The position numbers and the translations under genes were made by a program. From Hormiphora californensis (taxonomy: Eukaryota; Animalia; Ctenophora), in contig CM035352.1 in NCBI GenBank assembly GCA_020137815.1, positions 7,564,001-7,628,000 on the forward strand: DNA of 64,000 nt. The letters run 5' to 3'. Positions 2,604 through 62,470 of the stretch are shown in pieces. The first letter of the stretch is position 1. Each line of letters opens with the position of its first letter. The notes under the pieces were generated by a model that did no database searches, was not told the origin of the DNA, and was given only the letters and a program-made list of their open reading frames with translations.

Positions 2604-2687
2604 CTAGTCCCAGGATTGGTCACCATGGCAACCCCGTCCTAGTCCCAGGATTGGGTACTCAACATGAACAACTAATCCCATGATTGG
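2604..2687 (-). repeat. Triplication of the receptor's last codons plus stop codon into the 3' UTR
   Basis: Functional CAA TCA TGG GAT TAG at 2687-2672; copies CAA TCC TGG GAC TAG at 2654-2639 and 2619-2604. Confidence 0.8.
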
Positions 2688-5600
2688 AAGCCCTGATCAC
2701 TTGCATCAGTTAAATAACAAACAGAATCCCGTGACTTTTGAAGTGAGTCCTGCACTCCAATCAGATCCTTCCTGACCCTGAGACTAGTTAACCGTGTAGC
2801 CGGGTCACCAGCCCAGCACTCTGATATCAGTCTACTGAGAGGGGATGGCAGGATCCCGGTCAGGGAGGGTCTAGTCCGTGAGGTCACAACAACCCCCTCC
2901 ATATCCTGTATAGAGGGGTCAGTGGGGACATTCTGTTGATAGGGGTACTCGTAGGGCAGATCACTCACCCTCCTTCCTATCTCCCACATGACTAAGCCCA
3001 ACATGTACATGTCACATCTCCTGAATGATTCAAATGTAGTCAGGTTGATTGTTGAGGATAATATCTCGGGGGCCATGTACCGGCGTGTCCCAACCGTGTA
3101 GTGGAATGAAGGCTTGTCTGGGAGTTTATCAAAGTAGTCAGACCGGGCTGATAACCCAAAGTCAGCTATACTACATTCTGAACCGTGTTCTGTGGTCTTT
3201 ATTAGGATGTTCTTGCTTTTCAAGTCTCGGTGGGCGATGGAGGGTTTGGCAACTGATGATCTGATCTCTGTGTGAAGGTAGTCCAGACCAGAGGTGAGGG
3301 AGAGACAAAGTAGAATGCACTCCTGAGGGGAGGGGTGTTAGGTATAGACTAAGTAGAATGCACTCCTGAGAGGGGGAGGGGGTGTTAGGGAGAGACAGAG
3401 TAGAATGCACTCCTGAGAGGAGGGGGTGTTAGTTGAGAGCTTTCGTTAGAATTTAGAGCCTAGGCCTAATTCAAATGTTATTTTGTACTATTTCTACTAC
3501 TCTCTCGTAACGTCTCTATCCCCTACCTCTTGTGTTATGGTGTTGGTTTGTAGGAAATCAAAGAGTGATCCCTGGGGGTGGTAACTGAGAACTAGGTAGT
3601 ATTCCATACTGGTCACACAATCTTTCTGGTCCGCACCTGGATAGGGAGATAGAGTGGTTATTAGTGTGTTGATTAGGCCGAGTTGATTAAAAGTGAATAA
3701 TACAACTAGTACACCCTCACAGAGCCCACTACAGTGTGAGCCACACTGACACAAATACAAACTCACCGATGAAAGATAAGATGTTATCGTGACGTAACCA
3801 ATAGTTCTGATACATCTCAGCCTCATGCCACCAACTCGCCTCCTCTCTCCTACTAAACACTTTCACGGCCACCTGACCCCCCGCTCTCCAGTTGCCCCTC
3901 CACACAGCCCCATACCGGCCCTTTCCTATCCGCTCCACAAATGTGATCTCTCTGATTAGGGTCCGTTCTGTTAGTCTCGTGTTGCCAGAGCCGCTGGAAC
4001 ACGATGACGTCATCTCCTGGCCAGGAACCGGCTGAAGAGAAGGTTGTGTGTATTATAGTTGTTGTGAAGAGGGTTGTGGGTATTAGTTTCTGTGAAGAGG
4101 GTTTTTGTTAGTTGTTGTTGAGAGTTAATAAAGTCTACTATATATGTCAGTTATAAGTCACCAGTATGAGTTACCATTTAAGACCTTTTGTCAACCAATA
4201 TGTCAAGATAGGATGAGAGAACCGCTATGAATGGCAACTGCTCTTCGAACCAATCGAGAGTACTTGTCTATTTAGTCGGTATATAAATCCATTTTGTTGT
4301 TGTTGTTGTTGTGTAGAAGGTTGTGTATTAGTTATTGTGGAGAAGGTTGTGTGACGTGTGTTAGTTGTTGTGTAGAAGGTCGTATATTAGTTGTTGTGTG
4401 CCCCCGGTTGTTGAGTGCCCCCGGTTACTGTTTGGATTTAGTGCCCATTCCAAATTGAACTCTTACACGGTCGCTTGTAGTGGAAAAACGGTAATGGAAA
4501 ACGGAGATACAGTAAGACGACGCGCAACCGTGGCCAATCAGGGCGCTAGTACGTGCTGAACAAATGCACTTTTTGCCACGCGTTATGCAAAGTTTGCGTC
4601 TCGTTACAGTATTTCCATTACGGTAATGCGACTACAAGCAGCACTGTTAGTATGAAATAAGTATTCCCTCCCCTCTGTCTCTTCTTACCTGCCATCCCTG
4701 CGTTGAGAAGCCTGGTGCCATTATTACAGGGGGAGGACTTGGTTTGTTCTTATTGTGGGTATGGGATCTGCAGAATCGTGCTAGTAACATGGTACCCATC
4801 GCCATTGCTGGGAGAAGAGAGGAGGTTAGCGTGGGGGAGGAGAGGAGATTCAGATAGGGTGCAAAACAATAAAAGATAAAGTTTAAGGGGGGGGGGTAAC
4901 ATAGGGTGTAACATGGTTCCCATTATCAATGGTTGGAGGGAAGGGGAGATTCAGTTAGAATTCAAAACAGTCACAGTACAGAGAACTATTGAAGAAGATA
5001 AAGTGGTTACAACATGTGGTTAGTGGATGACACAGCTAGATAGGATTCAAGACTCACCTACAAGAAAGACAGCTAGATAGAATTCAAGACTCACCTACTA
5101 GAAAGACAGCTAGATAGGATTCAAGACTCACCTACTAGAAAGACAGCTAGATAGGATTCAAGACTCACCTACTAGAAAGACAGCTAGATAGGATTCAAGA
5201 CTCACCTACAAGGAAGACAATTCCCCCAACAATGTAAAGTGGGTAGGTAGGAGTGTTGTTTCTACTCTCACCACCCTTCCATCTGTCCTCTCTCCTGGGG
5301 TTCACTCCCTCAGTCACTACCTCCTCCTCCTCTCCTAACTCCCCGGGTGGGGTGATAGTGGTAGAGACGTGATCGGAGGTGGGAGGGAAGATTGTAGTGT
5401 CTAGGTAGTCTTCGTTACATAGCTCTCCCTGACAACACTGAGAGGGAGGGGGAGTGGGGTCAACAAACCATTAACTGTTATTGTGACATCACTGCGTGAT
5501 TGTAAGGTCATTGCGTGACTGTGACATCATTGCGTGATTATGTGACATCACTGCGTGATTGTGACGTCACTGCGTGATCATTGTGACGTCATTGCGTGAT

Positions 5601-6500
5601 TGTGCCGTCATCAGACTTACAACAAAGAGAGGGTCGTTAGGGCACAAGGTTGATTTCATGTACGCCAGGCCTATCTTGTTCTGGTTGAGGCAGCCTTGTT
5701 TCAGGACCACAAACTCTCCGTTGGTGTCCTTGTGCAGGCTTGTGAAGCAGAACCCAGAGGCAGAGAAACAAGTTCCTGTTTCATCGTGACACTGATTAGG
5801 GGTACATCTGGGGGGGGGGGGTGGGGGGTGGAGTAGGTGGCACTGGGGAGGTAGTGTGCAGTGTATGGGGGGGGGTACTGAGAGGGGGTGGTGGGGGTGT
5901 GTGGCTCGTGTATAGCGCTTTCAAGTCGGTGTCTACTCCCAATGGGGTGGAGGGGAGGTTTAAATGATAGTTCAATACGGCTGGGGGAGGTAGTCGTATC
6001 TAACCGCTCCGTGTATCATGCGGTTTGTGTCCGGTTTGTATTGGGACCCTTCCCAGTTGTTGCTAGTATATTCTACCGTAATGGTTCTTAGCATCAAGCA
6101 TTCTTATTCTTAATGTTTGAATTTAGAGTAACGTTGCCACCACTCAAAGACAGCGATTTGAAACAAATATTCACTGTGATTGAGACAACGAACAATAAAG
6201 CCTCTGCTAAGGCGGCAAGTTTGTTCCATGGTTTGGCCACGTGTCGTCTTACTGTATCTCCGTGGGATCTCCGTTTTCCATTACCGTTTTTCCACTACAA
6301 GCGACCGTGTACCCAATGAGGTTCTGTGACTGGTGGGGAGGGTTCTAAATCTCTTACTTGCAATTAATGGGTGGCGGGGAGGTGGTAGCGGTATCCTCAA
6401 CACCAGCTACCGTATATGGCATGTCCGTGTATTGTGGTCCAGGGTTGGTGGGGGTGATTGGGAACCCTTCCACAGAATGTTTTGGGGCCCTATTGTGTTG
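2672..6500 (-). CDS. TGF-beta/activin/BMP family type I receptor Ser/Thr kinase (N-terminus not resolved)
   Basis: Exons 6500(?)-6358, 5807-5621, 5437-5206, 4807-4689, 4031-3767, 3636-3527, 3322-2672, all GT-AG and phase-compatible. Cys-rich ectodomain with CCQGELCN box, TM segment ([20 protein letters not shown]), GS box SSCSSGSG, and kinase motifs [43 protein letters not shown]. Confidence 0.93.
3301..3432 (-). repeat. Triplicated splice acceptor plus exon start (43-47 bp units) of the last kinase exon
   Basis: Three copies of ctaacacccc..ctcag|GAGTGCATTCTA, with exon starts at 3412, 3365 and 3322; only 3322 reads through. Confidence 0.85.
4466..4646 (+). mobile_element. Short MITE-like element in a receptor intron
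   Basis: Imperfect terminal inverted repeats (cacggtcgcttgtagt / actacaagcagcactg) with TA flanks. A second copy lies inverted at about 6054-6309. Confidence 0.55.
5030..5219 (-). repeat. 37-bp tandem array carrying five copies of the TM-exon splice donor
   Basis: ctcaccta occurs at 5053, 5090, 5127, 5164 and 5201 (period 37). Minus-strand unit: GTGAGTcttgaatcctatctagctGTCTTTCTAGTAG. Confidence 0.92.
5480..5612. repeat. ~20-bp intronic minisatellite (ttgtgacatcactgcgtga)
   Basis: About 6 degenerate direct copies filling most of a short intron. Confidence 0.8.
6054..6309 (-). mobile_element. Second, inverted copy of the 4466-4646 MITE family
   Basis: 6235-6309 is the reverse complement of about 4466-4535 (gtcgtcttactgtatctccg..ttttccattaccgtttttccactacaagcgaccgtg); the other end is degenerate. 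Confidence 0.55.
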
Positions 6501-6519
6501 CTACAGCAGTAATGGGTTC

Positions 6520-9330: not shown

Positions 9331-10019
9331 GTCTCCCTAAAAAGGGAGGAGTTCTGATAACATCACACACACGGAGAAAATAATTCTGAGGATCCCGCTT
9401 CGTGCACAAATGTCCAAAGAGACAAACGACAATGTAACACGGATTAGATCCTCTAATTCTCTAAATGGATATGCACTGAATGGAGGAATAATGCACAAAG
9501 AGAGGAGTGAGGAAAAGAATAACGAAACCTAATGCATTTTAGTGAATGGCATCTACGTTGCACCGGCCCAGTAAGCGAGACAGTGCCATTATAGGCCCCA
9601 GATACACACAGGGCCCAGATACACACAGGGCCCAATAACACACAGGCCAAAAGTAGTACCCGGTTGTTTGGCGCCCAACACTTTTTTAAAGTGCCTGTTA
9701 ATGGACTTTTATAGGGAATAAAAATAATAGGGCCAGATAAAGGAGTAGGCCCAAATTAGGTTGTTCAGGGGCCCCCCATACGTGGTAATGGTATTGAAAA
9801 GTGGTTCAACTCTCGCTCCCTTTCTTTTGAAAACAACAAGGTCCCGGAAGAAGGGTGAAAAACCTATTGAACAAAACTTGGAACTGTGCCCAGAACCTAA
9901 CGAACAATAGGGGGGCGGGTTCAAGGTTCAATCTAGCTCAATCTAAAACAAAAGGTCTGTTTTCTAGGCAACTGCTGCACTACAACGCACACCCTACTCC
10001 TTTCAGTCACTCACTTAGC

Positions 10020-10061
10020 TCTCTCACTCTCTCTCTCTCTCTCTCTCACCCTCTCTCACTC

Positions 10062-10115
<54 letters not shown>
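10020..10115. repeat. (CT)n microsatellite
   Basis: Direct inspection. Confidence 0.9.
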
Positions 10116-10118
<3 letters not shown>

Positions 10119-23285: not shown

Positions 23286-23519
23286 TTAAATCCTACCTGA
23301 TCTCAGGATGGTAGGTGGAAGAAGGGGAGGTTGGTAAGGTTTCAGGTTTTCATAGTTCTCATCTAGGCTCACATAATCACTCTCTCCCCGGGATGGTCCC
23401 CTCATGTTCATTACATAGTCACTCTCAGTTCTTGAGGGGGCTCTGCTTGGATCCCCCTCATGTCGCTGGATCTCATTGACAATCTCGTAGTATCCCCCAG
23501 GGTAGTAGGTACTATACAT
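23286..23519 (-). CDS. Candidate exon or small ORF rich in Tyr motifs; unknown product
   Basis: Non-repetitive ORF MYSTYYPGGYYEIV..ESDYVM..ESDYVS..ENYENLKPYQPPLLPP, preceded by an acceptor-like ctccctag. No family recognised. Confidence 0.35.
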   Translation of the reverse strand: MYSTYYPGGYYEIVNEIQRHEGDPSRAPSRTESDYVMNMRGPSRGESDYVSLDENYENLKPYQPPLLPPTILRSGRI

Positions 23520-23774
23520 TGCCTCACCTCATAGCTAGGGAGATGGTTATTGTTATAGTGCGATAGACAGTTTTTGGGGCATTGGCTACAGGCCGATATA
23601 TATTGGTCATCAATAACGCTTACTTTAGCGAGATGTAAGTAAGATAAAGCTATAAAATGGCCCAGGCAGTAGAAACGAATCCAAGCTAAACCAACACAAA
23701 CGCTAATGGGACTTATTTTATGGGACTTATTTTATGGGACTTATTTTATGGGAACCCAATACATGTCCAGAGGA

Positions 23775-24180
23775 GGAGAGGTGGCTAGGAGAGAACTGTG
23801 GCGACAAGAGGTGGCTAGGAGAGAACTGTGGCGACAAGAGGTGGCTAGGAGAGATAGAACTGTGGCTAGGAGAGGTGGCTAGGAGAGAACTGTGGCGACT
23901 AGAGGTGGCTGAGAGAGAGAACTGTGGCGACGAGAGGTGGCTAGGAGAGAACTGTGTCGACAAGAGGTGGCTAGGAGAGATAGAACTGTGGCTAGGAGAG
24001 GTGGCTAGGAGAGAACTGTGGCGACTAGAGGTGGCTAGGAGAGAGAACTGTGGCTACGAGAGGTGGCTAGGAGAGAACTGTGGCGACGAGAGGTGGCTAG
24101 GAGAGAACTGTGGCGACTAGAGGTGGCTAATAGAGAACTGTGACGACTAGAGGTGACTAGGAAAGGACTGTGGCGACAAG
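23775..24180. repeat. ~30-bp minisatellite (gagaggtggctaggagagaactgtggcgac)
   Basis: More than 10 degenerate copies; accounts for the WLGENCGDKR ORF. Confidence 0.9.
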
Positions 24181-26122: not shown

Positions 26123-37812
<11,690 letters not shown>

Positions 37813-45300: not shown

Positions 45301-48300
45301 GTCTCAGGCCGTTAAAGAAGACCCATTCGACATGATGGGAACACTGAATCCAGCGTGGAGCACGTGCGAGGCTAACAGCAGGTAACATTAACACAGGGTG
45401 TTTCTCAAAACAGCAGGTAACAAGAAATACAGAGAGTGTCTCAAAACAGCAGGTAAGTAAGTGGTAACACTGACAGGCCAATGATCCTGACAAAGGTAAC
45501 ATGAAATACACATGGTTTTTCAAAATGGGACACCCTGCACAAAACACTTGAATAATGTTTTGACTTTAAGGAACACCCTGTTTAACAAATTTAAAACAAA
45601 TTTAAAACAATACCAGCTGTATAACAAATGAGAATGTATAATGATATCGGCTATAAACACACGGCTTGAGTTACATCAAGACACACACAAGGATAGTGAC
45701 ATGAGTGGTATATTTGTTGTTATTGCACCCCAGATAGTGCAACTCATGACACATTTTCTCAACACGACATGGCAGAGAGCGATTTAAAGAAACATACACC
45801 ATACGGGCACAATACCTAATATAAGGGGCATCACGTAACAGCAATCCCCGGTCAGCAACTGAGCCGAAGCAACAGACAGCAACTACCCTAAGGGTAAGGG
45901 GAGGCAGCCTGTATAGACACAAGAAATGAGGGAGGCTACTTCTTGCCTGAGTTGTTACAATGCCTGAGGGTTAAGGACACTAAAATTTCAATTTAAAGCT
46001 CTCTCATCTAAAATAGATTTATTGCTCTGTATTAAATCATGTAAATTGGTATCAAGAAGGTAGTTTCAGACAATTTGCAATGATAGGAATATAAATTCAC
46101 CCAACCTCCTAATATTAATGTCCCTAACTTCTCTCCCAACCTCATCTACCACCCTCCCAATCCCCCCTCTAACACCCCCTCTAACACCCATCCCCTCCCC
46201 AGTTTGGACACTCTTTAACACCCCTCCCTCCCCAGTTTGGAACCGAAACCATGGTCCCTAGACCATACACAGGCCCGGTAGCACATCCCCAAGTTGGAGG
46301 AGACACTTTGAGGCCCCTTCCCAACCAGTCCTGTGCTGTTTACAATGCCACGCGCGGAGTATGATCGACATGGCCCCAAGACCCCAGTTGGAGAATTATG
46401 AACTACGTGGTACCTGTAGTAACTATGGGCCCTGCTAACTAAACCTGTTAAAGTAACCCACCAAAGTTGAAGTAGCGCCGTGGTCTGGAGGTTTCAATGG
46501 CCCAGCCTCTGAGACAACAAAAAATATGCCCCACCCGTTTAGAGGCAACGAAACCGTGTCCTGGACCATAAATGGGCCCTCTCTAACCCCTTAACACTTC
46601 AACACCCTCCCCTCCCAGTTTGGAGGACACTGAAGACCCGTGGTCCCTGGACCGATACAATGGGCCCGGTAGTACCAGTAGCGAGGAAAGTGAGGAGGAA
46701 CATACGTTTGGAGTGGCCCCCTCCCAGCCAGTACCTAGTGCCGTGTTCGTGGACCAGGGGGAGTATGAATGGGACATTGGGGAACCAGCAAGAACGTGAG
46801 TAATTAGTAACTAGTTAGTAACTAGTAACTAATGAGCAACTAGTGAGTAACTAATTAGAAATTAGTGAGTAACTGATTAGTAACTAAACACAAAAATTAA
46901 AGTCCGCCAGCGTCCTTAGCGGGAGGTGTGAATTGCACAACACGTCTCTTACATGTCTGAGTGAGACAACAAAATAGTATTGGAATCTAGACTTGGTTGT
47001 TAATTGGGGCTAACTGCTCAATCAAGTTCACCCAATTTAGGAATAGAGCTCAGTTAAATAGGGGGCTTGGGAAAGTAGTACACACGACATGCAATCAACC
47101 ATAAAATTGCAATGGTGCAGTAGTGAAAACAAGGAAGAGAGAGAGAGAGAGAGGGCTGAGGGGGAGATAGAGAGAGGTAGAGAGAGAGCAGAGATAGAAA
47201 GACAAAGATAGAGAGAGGCGAGACAGAGATAGAGGGAGAGAAGCGTGACTTCGAGTGTAAAAAGTCTCTAGGTTTGAAACCGGTGATAACCGGAAAACAA
47301 GGGATTAATAGGCTAGAAAACAAAATACTTGCATTCGTTTTGTAACGAGAAATCAGAAAAGCATATCGGGGGGGGGGGGTAGAAATGTAAGCTAAAAGAG
47401 AGGGATATCAAGAGGGATATCGAGAGGGTTATAAGAGAGGGGGAAGGATAAAGAGGGATATCGATAGTTAAAGATCATAGATGGCAACTGTCGTTTAGTG
47501 GTGGGATACGATTGCATGATGTACATCGTTTCTCTCTCTTTCTCTCTGCTCTCTCGAGATTACAAGAGGAGTATTGTTTACAGACCCCCGGTCCGAGAAC
47601 AATAAGTTGTTTGAACTCTCGACCTCATCAATTAGACCATTTACTGTTGGCCGATGTCACCTAGAACTCTATTTCCCTAGTTACACAGAGGACTAGAATT
47701 CTAATTCCCTAGTTACACTGAGGAATAGAATTCTAACTCCCTAGTTACACCAAGGACTAGAATTCTATTTCCCTAGTTACACCAAGGACTAGAATTCTAT
47801 TTCCCTAGTTACACAGAGGACTAGAATTCTAACTCCCTAGGACTAGAATTCTAACTCCCTAGTTACACTGAGGACTAGAATTCTAACTCCCTAGTTAAAC
47901 AGAGGACTAGAATTCTAACTCCCTAGTTACACAGAGGACTATAATTCTAACTCCCTAGTTACACAGAGGACTAGAATTCTAAATCCCTAGTTACACAGAG
48001 GACTAGAATTCTATTTCCCTAGTTACACAGAGGACTAGAATTCTATTTCCCTAGTTACACAGAGGACTAGAATTCTAATTCCCTAGTTACACTGAGGACT
48101 AGAATTCTAACTCCCTAGTTACACCAAGGACTAGAATTCTATTTCCCTAGTTACACCAAGGACTAGAATTCTATTTCCCTAGTTACACAGAGGACTAGAA
48201 TTCTAACTCCCTAGTTACACTGAGGACTAGAATTCTAACTCCCTAGTTACACTGAGGACTAGAATTCTAACTCCCTAGTTACACTGAGGACTAGAATTCT

Positions 48301-49442
48301 AACTCCCTAGTTACACTGAGGACTATAATTCTAACTCCCTAGTTACACAGAGGACTAGAATTCTATTTCCCTAGTTACACAGAGGACTATAACTCTATTT
48401 CCCTAGTTACACAGAGGACCAAGTGACTCTATCCGAGAGCAGGGAACGACTGTCAACTGTTACCAAGAAAGCTGTGGCTTCTCTGGAGAAAAGCCGGCAA
48501 GAGAAACAAAAAACAAATCCTGCACCAACTGGCAGCAGTCTTATTGACTTCTCTACATTTGAGGACAGGTAAGTGTTCCAGCTTATCGAAAGGTACCCGC
48601 ACTGCACCTTTCTCGACTAACCGTTCCCCAGTAAAATATAGATTAGAGCACAACAAAACAGACAGTTCCAATATCTACTGCAGCTATTCCTGGTAGTGAC
48701 ATCTGAACATGCCCCCCGGGGAACCTCAGTACAACTCACGTGAAGCGTCATCATGACTGCCAAAAACTCCTTCTTCACTGTAAATTCACACATAACCTGC
48801 AGCCCCTCCACCATCTTATCCTGTCCCCCTGCATCCATTCTCCCATTTTATCAAGCACCCCATTCCCCCATTTTGGCTTGTTGAGTACTCAACAAATTCT
48901 CACTGTATGTAACCCCCAACAGGTTGGAGAGCAGTACTGCAGTTGACTTGTTTGACTCCCTAGCAACACCCCAGACAACCACCACTACTACTAGATCTGC
49001 ATCTCCTGCTAAAACTGGTGGGCTGGCTGATGATCTGTTCTCACTGGACCTTAGCACCCCCGCAAAGGATTCCAACAAGGTGAGTGTATGATGTTGGGTT
49101 AAGTTAAATCAATGGGGGTACTGGGGGTAATGGGTGGTAACTAGTGGTGGGTTTGGATTGGATTTCTATTGTGGGACAGGTCCAAACTGTCTGGCTGATG
49201 GGGCGAGACTGAATGGCATCGAGTCATCCTTTCATGCTCGGGAAAGTACGGCATGCCTTGTTGAGTAAGGGGTGAGAGGGGGTCAACAAGGCATGCTAGG
49301 CAAACATGAATTGGACACAGGTCGAGAAACGATGGAGCTTACACTTCAACTAAACAGAGGACTTGTTGAGTAACAGAGGACCACTAAGAGGAACTGTGGT
49401 GTAAATTAGCACGCTGGAGAGGATCTATTGAACAACGGAGCG

Positions 49443-49540
<98 letters not shown>

Positions 49541-51373
49541 ATGTATGCAGTGAAGGAAGCTAGAAGGAAGTTACCACAACTCCAAGTTGTAATTACAACA
49601 GGGAGTGCCACACCCATTACCAGGTGCCAGATTAGGATGCAGTACAAGATCACTATAATAAGGAGATCTGATCAGATTAGGTCAACCAAGCAGGACTGTG
49701 GGAAATGTCGAGAGATCGCAAACAACTCTGGTGTGATTGTCAACCTCTCGAAATTGTACAAATCTACACAGTAGCTGGTTACCATGGAAACTGCCGTTGG
49801 TTTTATCTCATCTCATTAATTTTGTTGGCTGAAGTCTCGTGGGGGGGGGGGGGTAATAATGAAATTTCTGATAAGGACCTCCCCATGCAGGAGTGATGGC
49901 ACTCTTGTCCCCTCACTCCAATGGTGACCTCACTCCCCTCCATTATTGCAGGGAGGCATGCCGGTTGTAGCCCCGACCTCACTCTCCCCATTATTACAGG
50001 GAGGCATGCCCCGACCTCACTCCCCCCATTATTACAGGGAGGCATGCCCCGACCTCACTCCCCCCATTATTACAGGGAGGCATGCCGGTTGTAGCCCCGA
50101 CCTAACTCCCCCATTATTACAGGGAGGCATGCCCGTTGTAGCCCCGACCTCACTCCCCCCCCATTATTACAGGGAGGTATGCCCGTTGTAGCCCCGACCT
50201 CACTCTCCCCATTATTACAGGGAGGCATGCCCGTTGTAGCCCCGACCTCACTCCCCCCCCATTATTACAGGGAGGCATGCCCGTTGTAGCCCCGACCTCA
50301 CTCCCCCCCCATTATTACAGGGAGGTATGCCCGTTGTAGCCCCGACCTCACTCCCCCCCCATTATTACAGGGAGGTATGCCCGTTGTAGCCCCGACCTAA
50401 CTCCCCCCATTATTACAGGGAGGCATGCCCGTTGTAGCCCCGACCTCACTCCCCCCATTATTACAGGGAGGCATGCCCCGACCTCACTCTCCCCATTATT
50501 GCAGGGAGGTATGCCGGTTGTAGCCCCGACCTCTGAGTCACGAAAGTATGAGCTGGATATCTCGTCCCTCCTGGGCCCCACCCCAACTCAACCAACACCA
50601 CCATCAGGTATCTATCTACAGTTTCGTAGTTTTTGAGGAGTATATCACTAGGCTGGTATGGCACCAGGGTATCATACTCAGCTCTGGCAAACGCCCACTC
50701 AAGAATGTGATAATAACCAAATAATACCAAACAATAAACATAACTTCATTTTTAGGTACACAACAACAACCTAACTGGGGCGCATTCGGTAGTCAACCGG
50801 CTGCCACATCTGGTAGCATGTCAGGATTCGGTAGTCAACCCACAGCCACCTCTGGCTTCCAGGCATTTGGTGGCATGTCAGCATTTGGGGCAACTTCCCA
50901 ACCGGCAGGATTCGGGGCTACTAGCACCCAACCGGCAGGATTTGGAGGATCAAGTAGTGGGGGCACATTCGGGGCATCCCAGCCTACTCCCTCCTTTGGA
51001 GCTCAGCCATCTACTGCTGCAGGGAGCTTTGGTGGGTTCGGAGCTGCCCCACAGCAACCTAACTATCAACCAAACTTCGCTTTTCCTGTAAACTTCGGAG
51101 AAACGGTACGTAAATAGATTCATCATGGCCATACAGAAATGTTGTCTGACTAAGTAGTTGAACAAAATGCACTTCTTTTACCTTGTTATGTAACCCTCCT
51201 TTACATTTGTAAACACAGTCTAGCTAGGCAACTTTTACCTATACTTTTGATCTTTTCAGAGCACCACTACTGTCAAACCAGCCAAGTCGACAAACCCATT
51301 TCACCAGCCCCCTGCTAAAACCAACTCAACAACTTTTGATCCGTTTAGTGACTTGATGGGTGATGCCATTTAG
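42381..51373 (+). CDS. DAB: Disabled-like PTB-domain clathrin adaptor
   Basis: Exons 42381-42497, 42843-42993, 43516-43703, 44035-44362, 44717-~44924 (frame disrupted), 45308-45381, 46619-46795, 48407-48568, 48923-49079, 50505-50607, 50756-51105, 51260-51373. PTB domain GVLYKAKMIG..KGDK..HKDRIMIRISIQG..ISYLAED..FSYI..HRLFAIKT. The tail carries DPF, DPW, LIDF, DLF and NPF endocytic motifs. Confidence 0.88.
42464..42670 (+). repeat. 52-bp tandem array with four copies of the Dab exon-1 3' end plus donor
   Basis: Four copies of AGACTCAACAGCCTCTCAGGCAGAGTCAGTGAG|gtaaga, period 52. Confidence 0.9.
45374..45460 (+). repeat. Triplicated splice donor (AACAGCAG|gtaa), 35-36 bp period
   Basis: GT at 45382, 45417 and 45453. 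Confidence 0.75.
46165..46600 (+). pseudogene. Degenerate upstream copies of the Dab acceptor and exon 46619-46795
   Basis: ccccag|tttgga occurs twice (about 46202 and 46235). 46236-46390 aligns gappily to the whole exon, and 46535-46580 to its 5' part. Confidence 0.6.
47661..48419 (+). repeat. 32-bp tandem array with 24 copies of a Dab splice acceptor plus exon start
   Basis: Unit tagaattctaactccctag|TTACACAGAGGAC. Acceptors recur every 32 bp from 47680 to 48406, with one shortened unit. Confidence 0.93.
49445..49540. repeat. (GA)n microsatellite
   Basis: Direct inspection. Confidence 0.9.
49925..50532 (+). repeat. 38-50-bp tandem array with ~13 copies of a Dab acceptor plus exon start
   Basis: Unit cactcccccccattattacag|GGAGGCATGCCCGTTGTAGCCCCGACCT; the last copy (50505) continues into the exon. 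Confidence 0.9.
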
Positions 51374-51946: not shown

Positions 51947-54900
51947 CTAGTACTGGTGGTTAGCGATGAAGAGACTGTCTCCAGCACTGGCTCCCTCGAT
52001 CTCACCGTGGTACTTGCCCAGACATGCCATGTGGTTAGCATAGGCCCTCTTTCGCAGCTCGTTCTGTGCAGCGGCCACATTTTCAGGTTTTCCCTGCCAT
52101 GCCTTCAGGACACTAGCCTGGAGAGCTCGTCCGTAGGAGAAAGAGAGGGCCCAGGGTTTGCGAGCTGAGGAAGGGAGAAATATGTGAGTGGGTGAATTGG
52201 AAGAGTACTGAAAGTGAGATCAAGAGATAGTTAGGGGCGGGAAGCCGAATATCGGCTATGAATGGGAAAATCAATGCAACAATCTGATTTCTTCACCAAT
52301 GTGTCCCCAATGGTGTCCTTTATCACCAAAAAAAAGTGTAACATCCGGCTCGGAGTGGAACATGCTCAAAATTTAGAAAAACCATATGGGCGTGGTCGAG
52401 CGTGGGAAATTTTTTTACCATCAACCTAAATGGAAAAACGAGGGCACTAGAATGTGCAGAATCATCGCATTAGTGGGGGTAGGTGCCGGAATTAAGTCTC
52501 TATCTCATCCGGTTAATTAGATAATTGGATAATTAGGTTTGCGCATAATTTTCCTTTGGTTATATGGCTATAGCCACTTAGGAAAGGAGTAGAGACAAAA
52601 CCGAGGGCACTAAAATGATCAGCGTCCTCGAATTAATGGGGGTAGGTGCTGGAATTAAGTCTCTATCTCATTCGGGTAATTAGATAATTGGATAATTAGG
52701 TTTGCGCATAACCGTTTTTTGGCTATATATGGCTATAGTCACTTAGGAATGGTTTAGAGACTTTTCATTGGTGCCATTTTGTAGGTAATGGTCAAGTTAT
52801 GGGGGGTCGACGTCGGACTATTAAGCTCTATCTTCAACCGTTTAGCCGTTATTTGACTTTAAAGGTGCTCAAAATGAGCGAAAAACGGTAAAAAGCCCGA
52901 TTTTGAGCACCTTTAAAGTCAAATAACGGCTAAACGGTTGAAGATAGAGCTTAAAAGTCCGACGTCGACCCCCCATAACTTGACCATTGCCTACAAAATG
53001 GCGCCAATGAAAAGTCTCTAAACCATTCCTAAGTGGCTATAGCCATATAGCCAAAAAACGGTTATGCGCAAACCTAATTATCCTATTATCTAATTACCCG
53101 AATGAGATAGAGACTTAATTCCAGCACCTACCCCAACTAATTCGAGGACGCTGATCATTTTAGTGCCCTCGGTTTTGTCTCTACTCCTTTCCTAAGTGGC
53201 TATAGCCATATAACCAAAGGAAAATTATGCACAAACCTAATTATCCAATTATCTAATTAACCGGATGAGATAGAGACTTAATTCCGGCACCTACCCCCAC
53301 TAATGCGATGATTCTGCACATTCTAGTGCCCTCGTTTTTCCATTTAGGTTGATGGTAAAAAAAATCCCACGCTCGACCACGCCCATATGGTTTTTCTAAA
53401 TTTTGAGCATGCTCCACTCCGAGCCGGATGTTACACTTTTTTTTGGTGATAAAGGACACCATTGGGGACACATTGGTGAAGAAATCAGCTTGTTGCATTG
53501 ATTTTCCCATTCAGGCTGGTCTAGCCCCTAACTAAGATATATTGGGCTGATTGATAGTTCTATTTCAATTTCGTCCGAAAGAGATTAGAGATAGACTCAC
53601 CCTTATCACCGAAGTTGTTGATGGCATTAAGGTTCTGGGATGCAGCCTCCTCACTCTGTCCTCCAGAGAGGAAAGTGATTCCCACAACAGCAGGAGGGAC
53701 AGTCCTGGAGAGAGCTGAAATGGGGTATTGAGTTAGTGCTGTTCAGTTGTAGTAGCCTGCTACTAAAATCAACAAGTTAGCGGGGATGATGGGGGGATGA
53801 AGTATTCAGTGATGGATGGGGAACTTTGCTGACCGATTTGATTTAGACTGATAAAGTTTCACTAAACACAGGATATCAACAGATCTGATAACCCAGCAAT
53901 ATCAGATAACACCCCCCCCCCCTCAGATATCTAGTTAGGGGCGGGAAGCCGAATATCGGCTATGAATGGGAAAATCAATGCAACAATCTGATTTCTTCAC
54001 CAATGTGTCCCCAATGGTGTCCTTTATCACCAAAAAAAAGTGTAACATCCGGCTCGGAGTGGAACATGCTCAAAATTTAGAAAAACCATATGGGCGTGGT
54101 CGAGCGTGGGAAATTTTTTTACCATCAACCTAAATGGAAAAACGAGGGCACTAGAATGTGCAGAATCATCGCATTAGTGGGGGTAGGTGCCGGAATTAAG
54201 TCTCTATCTCATCCGGTTAATTAGATAATTGGATAATTAGGTTTGCGCATAATTTTCCTTTGGTTATATGGCTATAGCCACTTAGGAAAGGAGTAGAGAC
54301 AAAACCGAGGGCACTAAAATGATCAGCGTCCTCGAATTAATGGGGGTAGGTGCTGGAATTAAGTCTCTATCTCATTCGGGTAATTAGATAATTGGATAAT
54401 TAGGTTTGCGCATAACCGTTTTTTGGCTATATATGGCTATAGTCACTTAGGAATGGTTTAGAGACTTTTCATTGGTGCCATTTTGTAGGTAATGGTCAAG
54501 TTATGGGGGGTCGACGTCGGACTATTAAGCTCTATCTTCAACCGTTTAGCCGTTATTTGACTTTAAAGGTGCTCAAAATGAGCGAAAAACGGTAAAAAGC
54601 CCGATTTTGAGCACCTTTAAAGTCAAATAACGGCTAAACGGTTGAAGATAGAGCTTAAAAGTCCGACGTCGACCCCCCATAACTTGACCATTGCCTACAA
54701 AATGGCGCCAATGAAAAGTCTCTAAACCATTCCTAAGTGGCTATAGCCATATAGCCAAAAAACGGTTATGCGCAAACCTAATTATCCTATTATCTAATTA
54801 CCCGAATGAGATAGAGACTTAATTCCAGCACCTACCCCAACTAATTCGAGGACGCTGATCATTTTAGTGCCCTCGGTTTTGTCTCTACTCCTTTCCTAAG

Positions 54901-57900
54901 TGGCTATAGCCATATAACCAAAGGAAAATTATGCACAAACCTAATTATCCAATTATCTAATTAACCGGATGAGATAGAGACTTAATTCCGGCACCTACCC
55001 CCACTAATGCGATGATTCTGCACATTCTAGTGCCCTCGTTTTTCCATTTAGGTTGATGGTAAAAAAAATCCCACGCTCGACCACGCCCATATGGTTTTTC
55101 TAAATTTTGAGCATGCTCCACTCCGAGCCGGATGTTACACTTTTTTTTGGTGATAAAGGACACCATTGGGGACACATTGGTGAAGAAATCAGCTTGTTGC
55201 ATTGATTTTCCCATTCAGGCTGGTCTAGCCCCTAACTAATCAGGTTTTATCCGATGATAGATGAGGTGACAAGATGGACCAGTCCCGCTTCGTGCTGCTA
55301 ACAATATCTACTCTCGTAGCGCGCCCAGAGCCCCGACCCCGCGCGCGCTGCCAAGTCCCGAATCTCTAATTTCTCGATCACTCTCCCAGTCTCTCAGCGA
55401 TCGTGATGTGTGGGAATGTTCTAGCATGCTTGATGAGATTGAATGGCTAGTGGCCACAATAAATGAACGCAGGTGGCTCCTTTTTCAGAAAATAATGCAC
55501 TACAAACTCGATAAATACAGGGAAACATCTCACGCTATAAACATCAGTTGTTGTTCTAACATGATTTGTGTTCGTTCAGATCACGTTCACGATAAATAAA
55601 CAGTATCACTACCAGGCCCATTTTAATTTCACACCAACTTCCTTCTTGTATCAAGTCATATGGCCCAAATCACATCTGTGTACACACTAACAATATCAGA
55701 GTGCTAGCTGTTGGCCCAAATCGCACACACACACACTCTCTAGTCTCTCTCTCTCTCCCTGTCTCCCATATCAGAGCACTGCTGTTTAGAGGATATATGG
55801 TGGCGGGGGAGGGGGGAGGATGGGGAACCTAAATCTTGTTTAGTCGGCAAATATGATTTGCATTAATTCATTTAGTGCTCCCTCTTACATCCCTCCTTGC
55901 CTAGCTCCCTCGTACATCGTATTATCCCTCCTTTCCTACCCTAGCTCCATCTCTAACCCCTTTATCCACCCCTTTACAACCCCATCTCGCCTTTCTAACC
56001 CCTTTATATCCACCCCTGCACACTACCCTCCACCTGTCTTTTAATATTGTTCGGTAATAAAGAGAAATGACTTGCTTGGAAAGCAAGATGTGTGTGTAGC
56101 CTATCAAATTCTAACTAATCTCCCCCCCCCCCCCCCCCCGTGTGTATTGTGGTGGGGAAGGAAGTGCATAATATTATATGAGTCGAGATTCCAGAACTTT
56201 CTACACACTGAGTCCACAGAAAAGAAGGAATAATTTACACTCCCCCATCGCGATGCATCGTTTCTATCTCTTTCTCTCTCTCTCTCTTTCTTTCTCTCTC
56301 TCTCTCTGTCTCTCTGCCTCCTTCTAGAAGAATAAATTTCGGTTGCTATGTACAGAGCGGACAGAGCCGACAGAGAGCCTCTTGATATGCATTCACTCCC
56401 CACTCATTACATATGCAAAGCAGCAGCTGTCAGCTAGTACAGTCAGCTACTCACAGCTAGGCTCTCTCCAAGAAAGCAACTAGCAATCGTATACAATGGT
56501 GAATGAGATATGATTATATGGTCTCCCAAGATAGAAGAAAGTGGTATCCCGTCTCCTACCGCCCGGAGAGAGAACTGATAAGGTTGGACTGTTATAGAAC
56601 TGCCGGTTTGCTAGCCTAGCCAGGTGTGATTCTTGGTGAACCTGCCCAACACAACAACTACAACCCCACCACTACCACTACCACCCTATATTATCTACGT
56701 ACCAAATGGCAAATATTGCTACAATTACCATTTACCACCTTTTAATAATCTACTTACCAGTAACAGTAGCACAGGCGACCTGTTCAGGGGTTGCCTTCAC
56801 TGGACACTGCATACCAGGAGTCACCATATTGGGCTTTAGAAGGGATCCCTCTAGGTAGAGGTTGTGATCAAGACACGCCTGGGAAGGGGAGGATTAGAGA
56901 TTAGTAAGGGATCCCTCTAGGTAGAGGTTGTGATCCAGACATGCCTGGGAAGGGGAGGATTAGAGATTAGTAAGGGATCCCTCTAGATATAGGTTGTGAT
57001 CCAGACATGCCTGGGAAGGGGAGGATTAGAGATTAGTAAGGGATCCCTCTAGGTAGAGGTTGTGATCAAGACACGCCTGGGAAGGGGAGGATTAGAGATT
57101 AGTAAGGGATCCCTCTAGGTAGAGGTTGTGGTCCAGACACGCCTGGGTTAGGGAGGATTAGAGATTAGTAAGGGATCCCTCTAGGTAGAGGTTGTGATCC
57201 AGACACGCCTGGGAAGGGGAGGATTAGAGATTAGTAAGGGATCCCTCTAGGTAGAGGTTGTGATCAAGACACGCCTGGGAAGGGGAGGATTAGAGATTAG
57301 TAAGGGATCCCTCTAGGTAGAGGTTGTGATCAAGACACGCCTGGGAAGGGGAGGATTAGAGATTAGTAAGGGATCCCTCTAGGTAGAGGTTGTGATCCAG
57401 ACACGCCTGGGAAGGGGAGGATTAGAGATTAGTAAGGGATCCCTCTAGGTAGAGGTTGTGATCAAGACACGCCTGGGAAGGGGAGGATTAGAGATTAGTA
57501 AGGGATCCCTCTAGGTAGAGGTTGTGGTCCAGACATGCCTGGGGGAAGGGGGAGGATTAGAGATTAGTAAGGGATCCCTCTAGGTATAGGTTGTGGTCCA
57601 GACACGCCTGGGAAGGGGAGGATTAGAGATTAGTAAGGGATCCCTCTAGGTACAGGTTGTGGTCCAGACACGCCTGGGAAGGGGAGGATTAGAGATTAGT
57701 AAGGGATCCCTCTAGGTAGAGGTTGTGATCCAGACATGCCTGGGAAGGGGAGGATTAGAGATTAGTAAGGGATCCCTCTAGATATAGGTTGTGATCCAGA
57801 CATGCCTGGGAAGGGGAGGATTAGAGATTAGTAAGGGATCCCTCTAGGTAGAGGTTGTGATCAAGACACGCCTGGGAAGGGGAGGATTAGAGATTAGTAA

Positions 57901-60900
57901 GGGATCCCTCTAGGTAGAGGTTGTGGTCCAGACACGCCTGGGTTAGGGAGGATTAGAGATTAGTAAGGGATCCCTCTAGGTAGAGGTTGTGATCCAGACA
58001 CGCCTGGGAAGGGGAGGATTAGAGATTAGTAAGGGATCCCTCTAGGTAGAGGTTGTGATCAAGACACGCCTGGGAAGGGGAGGATTAGAGATTAGTAAGG
58101 GATCCCTCTAGGTAGAGGTTGTGATCAAGACACGCCTGGGAAGGGGAGGATTAGAGATTAGTAAGGGATCCCTCTAGGTAGAGGTTGTGATCCAGACACG
58201 CCTGGGAAGGGGAGGATTAGAGATTAGTAAGGGATCCCTCTAGGTAGAGGTTGTGATCAAGACACGCCTGGGAAGGGGAGGATTAGAGATTAGTAAGGGA
58301 TCCCTCTAGGTAGAGGTTGTGGTCCAGACATGCCTGGGGGAAGGGGGAGGATTAGAGATTAGTAAGGGATCCCTCTAGGTATAGGTTGTGGTCCAGACAC
58401 GCCTGGGAAGGGGAGGATTAGAGATTAGTAAGGGATCCCTCTAGGTACAGGTTGTGGTCCAGACACGCCTGGGAAGGGGAGGATTAGAGATTAGTAAGGG
58501 ATCCCTCTAGGTAGAGGTTGTGGTCCAGACACGCCTGGGAAGGGGAGGATTAGAGATTAGTAAGGGATCCCTCTAGATATAGGTTGTGGTCCAGACATGC
58601 CTGGGAAGGGGAGGATTAGAGATTAGTAAGGGATCCCTCTAGGTACAGGTTGTGGTCCAGACATGCCTGGGAAGGGGAGGATTAGAGATTAGTAAGGGAT
58701 CCCTCTAGGTACAGGTTGTGATCCAGACACGCCTGGGAAGGGGAGGATTAGAGATTAGTAAGGGATCCCTCTAGGTAGAGGTTGTGGTCCAGACATGCCT
58801 GGGGGAAGGGGGAGGATTAGAGCTTAGTAAGAGATCCCTCTAGGTAGAGGTTGTGATCAAGACACGCCTGGGAAGGGGAGGATTAGAGATTAGTAAGGGA
58901 TCCCTCTAGGTACAGGTTGTGGTCCAGACACGCCTGGGAAGGGGAGGATTAGAGATTAGTAAGGGATCCCTCTAGATATAGGTTGTGGTCCAGACACGCC
59001 TGGAGAGGATTAGAGATTAGTAAGGGATCCCTCTAGGTACAGGTTGTGATCCAGACACGCCTGGGAAGGGGAGGATTAGAGATTAGTAAGGGATCCCTCT
59101 AGGTAGAGGTTGTGGTCCAGACACGCCTGGGAAGGGGAGGATTAGAGATTAGTAAGGGATCCCTCTAGGTATAGGTTGTGGTCCAGACATGCCTGGGAAG
59201 GGGAGGATTAGAGATTAGTAAGGGATCCCTCTAGGTAGAGGTTGTGGTCCAGACATGCCTGGGAAGGGGAGGATTAGAGATTAGTAAGGGATCCCTCTAG
59301 GTATAGGTTGTGGTCCAGACACGCCTGGGAAGGGGGAGGATTAGAGATTAGTAAGGGATCCCTCTAGATATAGGTTGTGATCCAGACATGCCTGGGAAGG
59401 GGAGGATTAGAGATTAGTAAGGGATCCCTCTAGGTACAGGTTGTGGTCCAGACATTCCTGGGAAGGGGAGGATTAGAGATTAGTAAGGGATCCCTCTAGG
59501 TACAGGTTGTGGTCCAGACATGCCTGGGAAGGGGAGGATTAGAGATTAGTAAGGGATCCCTCTAGGTAGAGGTTGTGGTCCAGACACGCCTGGGAAGGGG
59601 AGGATTAGAGATTAGTAAGGGATCCCTCTAGATATAGGTTGTGATCCAGACACGCCTGGGAAGGGGAGGATTAGATATTAGTAAGGGATCCCTCTAGGTA
59701 TAGGTTGTGGTCCAGACATGCCTGGGAAGGGGAGGATTAGAGATTAGTAAGGGATCCTTCTAGATATAGGTTATTATGGTCCAGACACGCCTGGGTTAGG
59801 GAGGATAATGACTCACTCACATAACCTAACCACTAATTATAAAGATATGTTTTAACTAATTAGTTGTAAATTGTAATTAGCTGCCAGGCACCCACTAATT
59901 AATTTCCACACACCTTGTAAACAGCAGCAAAGACCCTCTCAGAGACCTCCTGGCACCGTTCCAAGGTATGGGTCCCATCACACAGGACCTCAGGCTCTAC
60001 AATTGGAACAAGTCCGTTCTGTTGGCAGATGGTAGCGTACCTGGCCAGAGTGTAGGCATTCTCTTGGATAGCCAGCTCTGGAGGGGGAGGGAAGGGGGTT
60101 ATTTCAAATTTATTCTGGAAAGCAAGATAGGTGTTTTTTGTAGCTTTTAAAGTTCTAACTAATCTCCCCCCCCTGTGTGTTGTGGCAACTAAGGAAGCCG
60201 AAGAAAGTGCTATGCACGCGTCAAGATTCCAGAACTTTCCAAAGAGCACTGCATAAAAACATTTAGTGGAGCAGGAGTTTTTAAATTCTTTGGGGGAGGC
60301 CGGAGGGCTAAATATAGGAACTTTTAACCTCAATAACTCTATATCTAAACCCACACATACCAGATGGACCGTAGTCGGAGATCTTCAGGACAGCCCTCCA
60401 CTTAGCAAACTGAGCCCCACCTGCCTTGTACTTAGCACATCTCTCACCCAGTCCGTCAATACCCTGGGAAACACAAGATAAACTAGTAGAGTCGATAACT
60501 ACATCGACCTCTCCCAATTGTTCCAGTTTTTGTCACATCTGTTTGGAGCCTCGACACGACCTCTAAACAGGTGTTACTTTTTCACAAACTGTTTTCATCT
60601 TGGTGCATGTAATCAGCAGTTGAAATGTTGTTAATCATAACAAAAACCTAACTATTTTTTTTCAACTTGGGGTAAAACCATGGGTGTCAAAAGTTAGCTC
60701 TAGGTCCCCTGAGTAACCATCCGGAGACTCTAAGAGATATTTCAAGCCGTTCTCCCGTAATCATTAATCCCGGTGGAGAAAAAAATACAATGCGGACGTA
60801 CGTGAGCGCTGGCAGGCTGTTTACATGTTATTGTATGTCACAAATAAAAACAAGGAAGTTTAGTTCAACAGTTTACACATGTTTCAATACAAAATTGTAT

Positions 60901-62367
60901 TTCATCAGTTCTGATGAAATACAATTTTGTATTGAAACATGTGTAAACTGTTGAACTAAACTTCCTTGTTTTTATTTGTAAACAGCTCCTCCTGGTGAGT
61001 AGAGCACTATCCGAGGCAAGGACAATCAGCTATAGTTATTGTATGTCTCTCACTCTCTCTGGAAAAACCGCACGTGCGGTTGCGCCGCGCGAGATAACTC
61101 TTTCTCAAGGGGGAGAAAAGAGAGAGACGCACATTAACGTTATACATTAAAGTTGAGGTTGTAGGCAATTGCACGTACGTCCATACTCAAATATGTGCTC
61201 TACCGGGATTAATGATTACAGGAGAACGGCTTGAAATATCTCTTAGAGTCTCCGGATGGTTACTCAGGGGACCTAGAGCTAACTTTTGACACCCATGGTT
61301 TTACCCCAAGTTGAAAAAAAAATAGTTAGGTTTTTGTTATGATTAACAACATTTCAACTGCTGCTTACACCAAGATGAAAACAGTTTGTGAAAAAGTAAC
61401 ACCTGTTTAGAGGTCGTGTCGAGGCTCCAAACAGATGTGACAAAAACTGGAACAATTGGGAGAGGTCGATGTAGTTATCGACTCTACTAAACAACGAATA
61501 TGCATTATATAGTGGTTACTATAGTATTTTATTGGGTTGAACTATTTTGGGTGATACACTTATCACTTATAAAATAGTGGTTACTAGTAGGTACTAAATT
61601 AGTAAGTAAAGAATCCTAAAGAATAACACTTTGTTTCTTTCTTACCTGGGTGACGGTCTCTCCATCAGTACCAGGGAGGGGTACAACACCCTTATCGACC
61701 TTGATACCTGGTAGGGGAGATAGTTTTTAGGAGGCGGTTGTGATTTAGATGATATTTCCCCTCCAGAGGAGAGAATACACCACTGTGGCATGGTTGTACT
61801 TTTTTCACAAAAAAGAGAGGGAAAGAGAGAGGAAGAAAGAGAGATAGATTTAAAGACAAATCATGTCACCTGGGATGATATTGTGCTCCTGAAGGATCTG
61901 AACGAGGGGTGTCCCATCAGCTCCCTTCTGGAAGAGTGTCTCCTCAAAGAGGATGCATCCCCCGATGTAGTTCCCAATACCTGCCTCTTTGTCCAGAGAG
62001 AAGAGAAGCTCACGGTAGTCCCGCCTGTTGGTCTGAAGTGATGGGGGCGATTAGAAAAAGGAGGGTATCTTTCGGTCTAGTGATAGGATGTGATTAGAGA
62101 TAGGATTTGTACAAACGATATGATATTGATCTTATTCAGTAGCAAGTTGGGGGCGAAACTCTTAGAACGAATGGTTTGAGTGAGAAAGGTACAAAGGGGA
62201 GGTTCACCACTTACCTCGTTATTTTCAACACCAATACCAGCAAATCGTTTTCCGATTGTTCCAGTGCTCTCATCGGCAGCTAGGATACCCTTTCCATTGT
62301 CCACAATCGCATGAGCGATCTGCCTTAGTTCATCCTGTTGTTCCTTGGTTAGAGCAGCGGGTGCCAT
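51947..62367 (-). CDS. ALDO: Fructose-bisphosphate aldolase, class I
   Basis: Exons 62367-62215, 62032-61870, 61707-61646, 60463-60361, 60077-59914, 56878-56758, 53714-53601, 52164-51947, all GT-AG and in phase. Motifs: [31 protein letters not shown], Schiff-base [30 protein letters not shown]-terminal SLFIANHQY*. Confidence 0.97.
52228..53534. mobile_element. 1307-bp non-autonomous foldback element, Academ-like (TAG termini, 3-bp TSD), copy 1
   Basis: AGA|tagttaggggc ... gcccctaacta|AGA. Near-perfect arms of about 620 bp with a loop of about 25 bp near 52878-52900. Confidence 0.82.
53932..55238. mobile_element. 1307-bp Academ-like foldback element, copy 2
   Basis: ATC|tagttaggggc ... gcccctaacta|ATC. 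Appears identical to copy 1 but has a different TSD. Confidence 0.82.
56840..59810 (-). repeat. 66-bp tandem array with ~45 copies of the aldolase exon-6 acceptor plus first 13 codons
   Basis: Minus-strand unit actaatctctaatcctccccttcccag|GCGTGTCTGGATCACAACCTCTACCTAGAGGGATCCCTT. It fills almost the whole of intron 5. Confidence 0.95.
60484..61489. mobile_element. 1006-bp Academ-like non-autonomous element (second family)
   Basis: AAC|tagtagagtcgataac ... gttatcgactctacta|AAC. TIRs of about 290 bp and an internal perfect palindrome at 60840-60979. Confidence 0.82.
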
Positions 62368-62470
62368 GGTAACCTAGTTGAGAGTTAGGGTCATGGTTAC
62401 CTTGTTGGGATTTAGAGTCATGGTTAATGGGAGAGACATGGTTACCTAGTTAGATTTAGAGTCATGGTTA
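62364..62470 (-). repeat. Degenerate repeats of the acceptor plus ATG just upstream of the aldolase start
   Basis: ag|gt(t/a)accATG three times, plus further taaccATG partial copies. Confidence 0.7.

Follow-up and report, generated by a model that had tools for sequence, protein, structure and literature searches.

Some minisatellites have a repeat unit that crosses an exon-intron boundary and carries the splice signal with it. They are known as mirages, a term reportedly coined in a 2002 paper. In amphioxus they occur in Adh3, where units measure 10-72 bp, in the globin genes BflGb6 and BflGb9, in troponin C and in PGBD5 (PMC3087553, PMC3902484). As far as the main texts of these papers go, either end of an exon may be affected, splicing is apparently normal, haplotypes differ in copy number, and the units at the boundary escape homogenisation. 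The mechanism that generates mirages is called unclear in PMC3087553, where intra-allelic homogenisation is invoked, and the word 'synonymous' is absent from the main texts of both papers.

Similar repeats are found in humans. Intron 7 of F7 holds a 37-bp VNTR, with further cases in CBS, lamin B2 and PDGF (PMC1557585). In that account the first F7 monomer crosses the donor, copy number is polymorphic and the most upstream donor, which gives the shortest exon, is used; the unit has only four exon bases, lies on the donor side only and is given no codon analysis. At human minisatellites inter-allelic exchange is described as the usual driver, with variant units passing between alleles non-reciprocally (PMC2599865). 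Their units hold no selected coding copy, and no codon signature is expected of them.

Here we describe nine arrays at CDS boundaries in a 64,000-nucleotide window of the genome of a ctenophore, Hormiphora californensis, all nine lying where a preliminary description of the sequence had placed them. That description knew of no named class for such elements; there is one, since the arrays are mirage minisatellites in the sense of PMC3087553. They share the amphioxus traits listed above and, with F7, the use of the shortest-exon site. They differ from the amphioxus cases in their host, in repeating a stop and a start codon as well, and in having an excess of silent changes and an allele match that point to inter-allelic exchange; unlike F7, they lie on both sides of exons. 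What is likely new is this silent-site bias and the exchange it points to, the repeat type being already known. Among open papers, judged by title and the start of the abstract, none reports such a bias; the unit alignment that supplements PMC3087553 could bear on the point.

Two haplotypes of the host are ~7-10% apart in exons, mostly at silent sites, and their intron interiors are partly unalignable. Three genes carry the arrays. A TGF-beta/activin type I receptor gene (2672..5807, minus strand) has six coding exons that form a single open frame, supported by RNA joints, with its 5' exon not fixed. A PID/PTB-domain adaptor gene (42381..51373, plus strand), which from its motifs we label Disabled-like, has PF00640 on its protein-search match; two of its exons searched singly against Pfam gave no match. 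A fructose-bisphosphate aldolase gene (51947..62367, minus strand) has eight coding exons and a 365-aa open frame. The window also holds a PP2C gene model with approximate edges, some unpolished-looking stretches and a 1308-bp duplicate that is 100% identical.

The receptor gene has three arrays, all on the minus strand. At 2604..2687 the last five codons occur three times, two copies lying beyond the stop at 2672 in the likely 3' UTR, away from any splice site. A 47-bp unit with 26 exon bases occurs three times at 3297..3432 (working acceptor 3322), and a 37-bp unit with 13 exon bases five times at 5032..5219 (working donor 5206). In the adaptor gene (plus strand) a 52-bp unit with 33 exon bases is present in four copies (42464..42674; donor 42497), a 36-bp unit with eight exon bases in three (45374..45456; donor 45381), a 32-bp unit with 13 exon bases in 23 and one truncated (47661..48419; acceptor 48407), and a unit of 50 bp (38-50 bp) with 27 exon bases in 13 (49926..50533; acceptor 50505). 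The largest array, in the aldolase gene, consists of 45 copies of a 66-bp unit with 39 exon bases (56836..59806, minus strand; acceptor 56878). Finally, a 27-bp unit is repeated up to the aldolase ATG at 62367 (62365..62470, minus strand), three times by our search key and 4.3 times by TRF; in each unit the ATG is preceded at six bases by an AG, a possible acceptor. The unit thus crosses an exon-intron boundary in seven arrays, the stop array being excluded and the start array counting only if that AG is an acceptor.

The 66-bp array has the mirage trait of concerted evolution inside with the boundary unit left out: it contains 14 recombined unit types and a 12-unit block duplication, shows all four gametes at three site pairs, and is most diverged in the unit farthest from the exon. 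Units of the working type are concentrated near the exon (rho 0.47, for units that are not independent).

Which of the repeated splice sites is used? The claim that it is always the one giving the shortest exon was borne out wherever it could be compared: by RNA contig joints at 3322 (the X7 joint 3321-3526) and 5206, two of the seven splice arrays, and by protein alignment at three more. A 364-aa aldolase record matches the gene model in 356 of 365 aligned columns, without an insertion at 56878, and for the adaptor gene the orthologue from Mnemiopsis aligns colinearly through both 42497 and 48407. In a ctenophore, then, the shortest exon prevails over up to 44 intact upstream acceptors. All 89 spare sites retain their AG or GT, and none of the 89 gives an open in-frame extension, in agreement with the earlier statement that the extra copies hit stops or shift the frame. 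No joint using an extra site occurs in the X7 or X8 contigs over 2500-6000, contigs being assemblies that drop rare isoforms. A system of alternative splice sites or duplicated exons was rejected on these two results.

The exon-derived bases differ mainly by synonymous changes, as had been noted by eye. Pooled over arrays there are 36 distinct substitutions, 27 synonymous and nine non-synonymous (one of the nine an alignment artefact next to a 3-base insertion), where about 11 synonymous would be expected by chance; for an expected fraction of 0.23-0.30, P is 6e-11 to 3e-8, and dN/dS is 0.10-0.14. Dropping any single array leaves P below 5e-6. Synonymous and non-synonymous changes number 9 and 2 in the 66-bp array (one of the two being the artefact), 8 and 2 in the 52-bp array, and 2 and 0 in both the stop array and the 50-bp array; the 32-bp (2:3) and 47-bp (2:2) arrays have no excess. 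Since the 36-bp array has no change in its exon part and the exon part of the start array is the ATG alone, without codon information, the signal is carried by seven of the nine. Among recurrent changes 15 of 16 are synonymous, among singletons 12 of 20. Changes amount to 27 per ~40 synonymous sites, at most 30 per 118 intron-derived sites and nine per ~134 non-synonymous sites. Variation that came in by way of exon homology should give this order; the intron figure could also be lowered by constraint on the branch point and the pyrimidine tract.

How can untranslated copies come to vary like coding sequence? The preliminary description proposed exchange with the live exon edge, archiving past or segregating silent alleles. 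The part that invokes highly polymorphic alleles is supported. Allelic exon differences are synonymous in 30 of 36 cases, a spectrum not different from that of the arrays (P 0.56). Moreover, the exon end of another allele recurs exactly in the non-coding units of the 37-bp array: in the spliced X7 RNA contig the last 11 letters of the exon at 5206 are those of units 2-4 and not those of the window's own exon, and unit 5 is intermediate between the two. This match involves a single array, two sites in it and a single RNA contig, and shared ancestry followed by two later changes in the window's exon would also account for it.

The part that invokes past alleles of one lineage fell. Such an archive, in which repeated copying from the exon over time left units that record its past silent substitutions and exchange occurred only within one allele, is unlikely. 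It would suit the position of working-type units near the exon and the divergence of the farthest unit, and the 37-bp units could retain an ancestral state common to the other allele. It predicts a dN/dS of at least about 0.5, however, which 27 of 36 rejects (P 5e-6 to 4e-4), and the intron parts of the 37-bp units vary at one site across five copies, so that the units look too young to precede two silent substitutions in four codons. Duplication inside one lineage cannot yield a dN/dS this low. A first simulation, with small populations, was saturated and gave 0.40-1.00 in all nine settings and no low value. In a second toy simulation within-allele turnover gave 0.8-1.9 (0.83, 1.88 and 1.23), inter-allelic crossover lowered dN/dS from 0.41 to 0.23 (recurrent changes, 0.20 to 0.10) as exchange rose, and import from an allele pool gave 0.01-0.44 in five of six cases. 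Only inter-allelic models attained the observed value in this second simulation, with exchange assumed to be thousands of times as frequent as point mutation.

It is very unlikely that the units are used directly, the exon bases of an inner unit reaching the mRNA because the array collapses in somatic cells or splicing is unusual, with every unit thereby exposed to selection. Conservation at the protein level and the intact splice signals would fit, and PMC3087553 cites a report that the Adh3 mirages of amphioxus are somatically unstable. Against this stand the closed frames, RNA joints at the shortest-exon site, a haplotype (X5) that lacks the 37-bp array altogether, a 10-base frameshift deletion in three of 12 units of the 50-bp array, and an E-to-K change in four of 22 units of the 32-bp array. 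Collapse would also restore the same protein, hence with no evident gain. The earlier suggestion of non-canonical use in mRNA thus finds no support.

An assembly artefact, in which reads from more than one haplotype or animal were piled up into tandem copies and brought silent differences with them, seems just as improbable. The unpolished stretches, the identical duplicate, the 12-unit block and the unequal depth of the two X1 haplotypes (13-19 against 24-31) would favour it, as would the range of the contig comparison, 2500-6000, outside which lie five splice arrays, the four largest included, and the start array. Within that range, however, the 47-bp array is spanned at equal length by single contigs of two samples that come from different studies (X1 record 3, X5 record 11), the stop array is covered end to end without a difference by one contig from X5 DNA and another from the X8 RNA library, and the 37-bp array has exact flanking contigs (depth 105 against 18-19). 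Of the seven splice arrays the two so compared thus differ in length between haplotypes in one case, the 37-bp array, and agree in the other. Nor, we reason, would stacked alleles produce one precise intron-to-exon junction 44 times.

Hardly credible is a mutation bias or non-coding constraint that by chance spared first and second codon positions: transitions, more often silent, make up 15 of the 36 changes, but the excess persists in transitions (14 of 15 synonymous) and transversions (13 of 21) apart and in a permutation of the same changes (mean 11.2 synonymous, maximum 24 in 2,000,000), and is gone in the wrong frames (5/36 and 4/36).

We therefore think it likely that the arrays are untranslated mirage minisatellites whose silent-site bias comes from recombination with other alleles of their own exon, selection acting only on the one working copy. 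A short tandem duplication, perhaps at microhomology, as short motifs shared at most junctions suggest, would copy the exon edge with its splice signal, as seen here. Splicing would keep the shortest-exon site, as the RNA joints and protein alignments indicate, so that the copies are tolerated, and unequal exchange would enlarge and shuffle the array, to which the recombined unit types attest. Given the many silent differences between alleles, exchange between homologues by crossover or conversion would carry other alleles' exon edges into the units, as the 37-bp array illustrates and the others may repeat. Amino-acid-changing variants would be rare because imported sequence was already filtered in working exons, and those moving into the working copy would be removed by selection; the toy simulation reproduces both effects. 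The arrays are probably by-products, not devices. The spread of the E-to-K change and of the frameshift deletion counts against this explanation, as do the two arrays that have no silent excess. Protein searches for same-species alleles at the two non-synonymous exceptions returned only relatives at 62-71% identity.

In chicken immunoglobulin pseudo-V genes and Borrelia vlsE, too, untranslated copies keep coding features because they trade sequence with a locus that is expressed. Both are programmed systems in which the amino acids are diversified, whereas the variation described here is silent, lies in genes with housekeeping or signalling roles and comes with no evident programme. A cassette system whose donors diversify the protein was rejected, 15 of the 16 recurrent changes being silent.

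For a repeat class of known form and, according to PMC3087553, unclear origin, the codon-shaped signature directly indicates the source of variation among units and lends itself to genome-wide tests on existing phased assemblies. If our reading is true, untranslated DNA would appear to be under protein selection; low dN/dS in a repeat would be no proof of translation, and gene finders could be misled. Many alleles of an exon edge would lie within one genome, making inter-allelic exchange estimable. Duplication would be concentrated at exon edges, where alleles cease to align, with a bearing on intron gain and splice-site sliding.

We extend this only tentatively, to a mechanism we regard as possible rather than likely. 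In animals with high polymorphism, where alleles have exons but not the interiors of introns in common, repair from the homologue may end at exon edges and seed mirages there. Sequence would then pass in both directions between the arrays and working alleles, untranslated DNA would be under protein-level selection by proxy and one genome would hold a sample of the exon alleles present in the population; this might be the general mechanism so far lacking for mirages across marine invertebrates. Counted by position, a nearby copy occurs at seven of 74 coding edges and 7.9% of non-coding positions (P 0.37). Because that count includes the interiors of expanded arrays, we rely on array-level tests, which give a 2- to 5-fold enrichment at coding edges, its size depending on the null.

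All nine tandem arrays that the preliminary description placed at coding-sequence edges are present in the window sequence: four at acceptors (3322, 48407, 50505 and 56878), three at donors (5206, 42497 and 45381), one at a start (62367) and one at a stop (2672). Three genes host them all: a TGF-beta type I receptor (2672-5807, minus strand), a PID-domain adaptor (42381-51373, plus strand) and an aldolase (51947-62367, minus strand). Splicing in silico gives open models for the receptor, the aldolase and the adaptor's 3' part. Two window proteins have their closest named relatives in Mnemiopsis leidyi and Bolinopsis microptera, both ctenophores, and this homology points to a ctenophore as host. 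Arrays occupy 7 of the 56 modelled splice junctions in these genes and the mid-window PP2C gene, which has no array across any coding edge.

The site giving the shortest exon is the working one, as had been proposed; RNA contig joints confirm this at 3322 and 5206, and protein alignments support it at 56878, 42497 and 48407. The spare sites, extra copies beyond the working edge, keep AG or GT in 89 of 89 cases. The earlier view that they do not extend the frame also holds, since none of the 89 has an open in-frame extension. The arrays are real and non-coding. Contigs from four sequencing runs were compared with the window over 2500-6000 only, and the unit order given for the 66-, 50- and 32-mer arrays (acceptors 56878, 50505 and 48407) is that of the assembly. 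The 47-mer (acceptor 3322) is crossed by one unbroken contig in each of two samples, with 0 and 3 differences and no gaps. One DNA contig and one RNA-library contig span the stop array without difference, and the 37-mer (donor 5206) has exact flanking contigs, with a depth of 105 versus 18-19. One run, X1, may be the window's source sample. Homopolymer-rich stretches at 6550-9400, 15000-16600, 39480-39860 and 40470-41300 resemble unpolished, low-quality sequence.

The central claim, that exon-derived bases differ mainly silently, is upheld. When every distinct change is entered once, the pooled arrays hold 27 synonymous and 9 non-synonymous changes. The synonymous fraction expected by chance is 0.23-0.30 (P 6e-11 to 3e-8), and pooled dN/dS is 0.10-0.14. 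Third codon positions hold 29 of the 36 changes. Wrong reading frames score only 5 and 4 synonymous out of 36, and a permutation preserving the base changes never attained 27 in 2,000,000 draws. P stays below 5e-6 whichever array is removed. The synonymous to non-synonymous ratio is 15:1 for recurrent changes and 12:8 for singletons. Two of the nine arrays give no codon information, and two show no excess: the 47-mer (2:2) and the 32-mer (2:3), where 4 of the 22 units carry an E-to-K change. In the 50-mer, 3 of 12 units carry a frameshift deletion. Variable positions are most frequent at synonymous sites (27 per ~40) and least at non-synonymous sites (9 per ~134); intron-derived positions lie between, at no more than 30 per 118. 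That last figure is too high, since it also counts gap placements and the far flank, which cannot be aligned.

What is the source of this variation? X1 carries two haplotypes, whose exons differ at 14 of 199 and 31 of 330 bases. Among the 40 differences listed, of 130, 34 lie in exons. Two more from a loose contig end bring these to 36, of which 30 are synonymous; 4 of the non-synonymous 6 adjoin a 6-base indel. The allelic and array spectra do not differ (P 0.56). X1 depth over 2828-5570 is 13-19 for the window's haplotype and 24-31 for the other, not 1:1, reflecting either a pooled sample or bias. High heterozygosity and indel-rich non-coding DNA have been described in a ctenophore genome (PMC8527503). 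Inside the introns, one haplotype's sequence partly replaces the other's, with joints at 4078-4407, 4433-4678 and 4870-5187. The other haplotype has edge duplications private to it: in X1 a back-jump from 2701 to 2672 across the stop, at 3765-3770 a repeated and new donor whose 29-letter insert is palindromic, and at 3640-3672 a repeat ahead of the 3636 acceptor.

The idea that arrays exchange sequence with polymorphic alleles gains support from one array. In a spliced contig of X7 (RNA), the exon end at 5206 has 11 letters identical to 37-mer units 2-4 and unlike the window's own exon, and beyond it the contig goes on with variants of the other allele. Unit 5 has an intermediate sequence, and the array is absent from X5 (DNA). 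The single-lineage version, an archive of past exon states, is rejected (P 5e-6 to 4e-4): it predicts dN/dS of ~0.5 because every unit would add its own neutral changes. In the 66-mer, 44 units comprise 14 five-site types, three site pairs show all four gametes, and working-type units lie closer to the exon (rho 0.47, P 0.001, with units non-independent).

Toy simulations at nine small-population settings gave dN/dS of 0.40-1.00. In a second, better scaled set, within-allele turnover gave 0.83, 1.88 and 1.23. Inter-allelic unequal crossover gave 0.41 and 0.23 (0.20 and 0.10 for recurrent changes), with intron variation equal to synonymous variation. Import from an allele pool gave 1.07, 0.18, 0.03, 0.44 and 0.01, depending on import rate; strong import left intron variation far under synonymous. 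The real arrays, with dN/dS about 0.1 and an intron/synonymous ratio of about 0.3-0.4, fall between crossover and import, which argues that ordinary inter-allelic exchange, with selection on the terminal copy, would be sufficient at the assumed exchange rates. Inter-allelic exchange is described as the usual driver of human minisatellites (PMC2599865).

The codon signature can be accounted for by known processes. Nor is the repeat class unnamed, as had been supposed: the seven splice arrays match every tested defining feature of amphioxus 'mirages', minisatellites spanning exon-intron boundaries, as described in PMC3087553 and PMC3902484, and human F7-type VNTRs are the same sort of exon-edge array (PMC1557585). 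The word 'synonymous' is absent from the main texts of these three papers, and a literature search of open papers, judged by title and opening of the abstract, found no published silent-site bias in such arrays. The class is known; the strong codon signature seen here is apparently new to the literature.

Why exon edges? Arrays span coding edges in 8 of 32 cases against 2.0 expected (P 4e-4, array-level test), and within introns 7 of 23 lie at an edge against 3.0 (P 0.015). For intronic arrays of period < 100, 7 of 18 do so, where 1.3 would be expected per base and 3.2 per intron (P 0.023 for the latter). If arrays <=20 bases off an edge are included, a threshold picked post hoc, the count rises to 13 of 18 against 2.2. 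Tested by position, edges show no enrichment: 7 of 74 coding edges have a copy nearby, as do 7.9% of non-coding positions (P 0.37). The median intron, arrays collapsed, is about 350 bases, and part of the array-level enrichment arises because introns are short. Arrays may be seeded where allele homology ends. Purely intronic arrays <=20 bases from an exon edge lie at 4038-4103, 5480-5611, 32812-33454, 37444-37482, 43008-43095 and 46797-46887; the one at 32812 has 26 repeats of a branch-point-like and pyrimidine motif and lacks the AG. A 30-bp array of 13 copies (23776-24183) is distant from all modelled exons.

A donor-like motif repeated five times at 39035-39279 (minus strand), probably at the edge of a PP2C 5' untranslated exon, is a possible tenth array. 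In the adaptor, exon 46619-46795 has a degenerate copy at 46203-46410, which contains numerous small indels and has a two-copy acceptor of its own; this copy is either a duplicate that has died or an alternative exon whose sequence is poorly polished. The adaptor exon at 44717-44924 has no continuous frame, probably owing to indel errors; both halves resemble the Mnemiopsis orthologue. Two minus-strand open frames have no Pfam match: 411 amino acids at 62768-64000, and 80 at 23289-23528 with three tyrosine motifs. A 1308-bp foldback palindrome, its arms 96.6% alike, occurs as two 100% identical copies in successive aldolase introns (52228-53535 and 53932-55239), through either recent transposition or assembly error. 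Partly related to this palindrome is another foldback element, nested and roughly 4.7 kb long, inside a PP2C intron (27303-32028). A very high-copy short element with inverted ends lies at 4465-4650, in a receptor intron, and at 6280-6310, and also occurs in RNA-library contigs.
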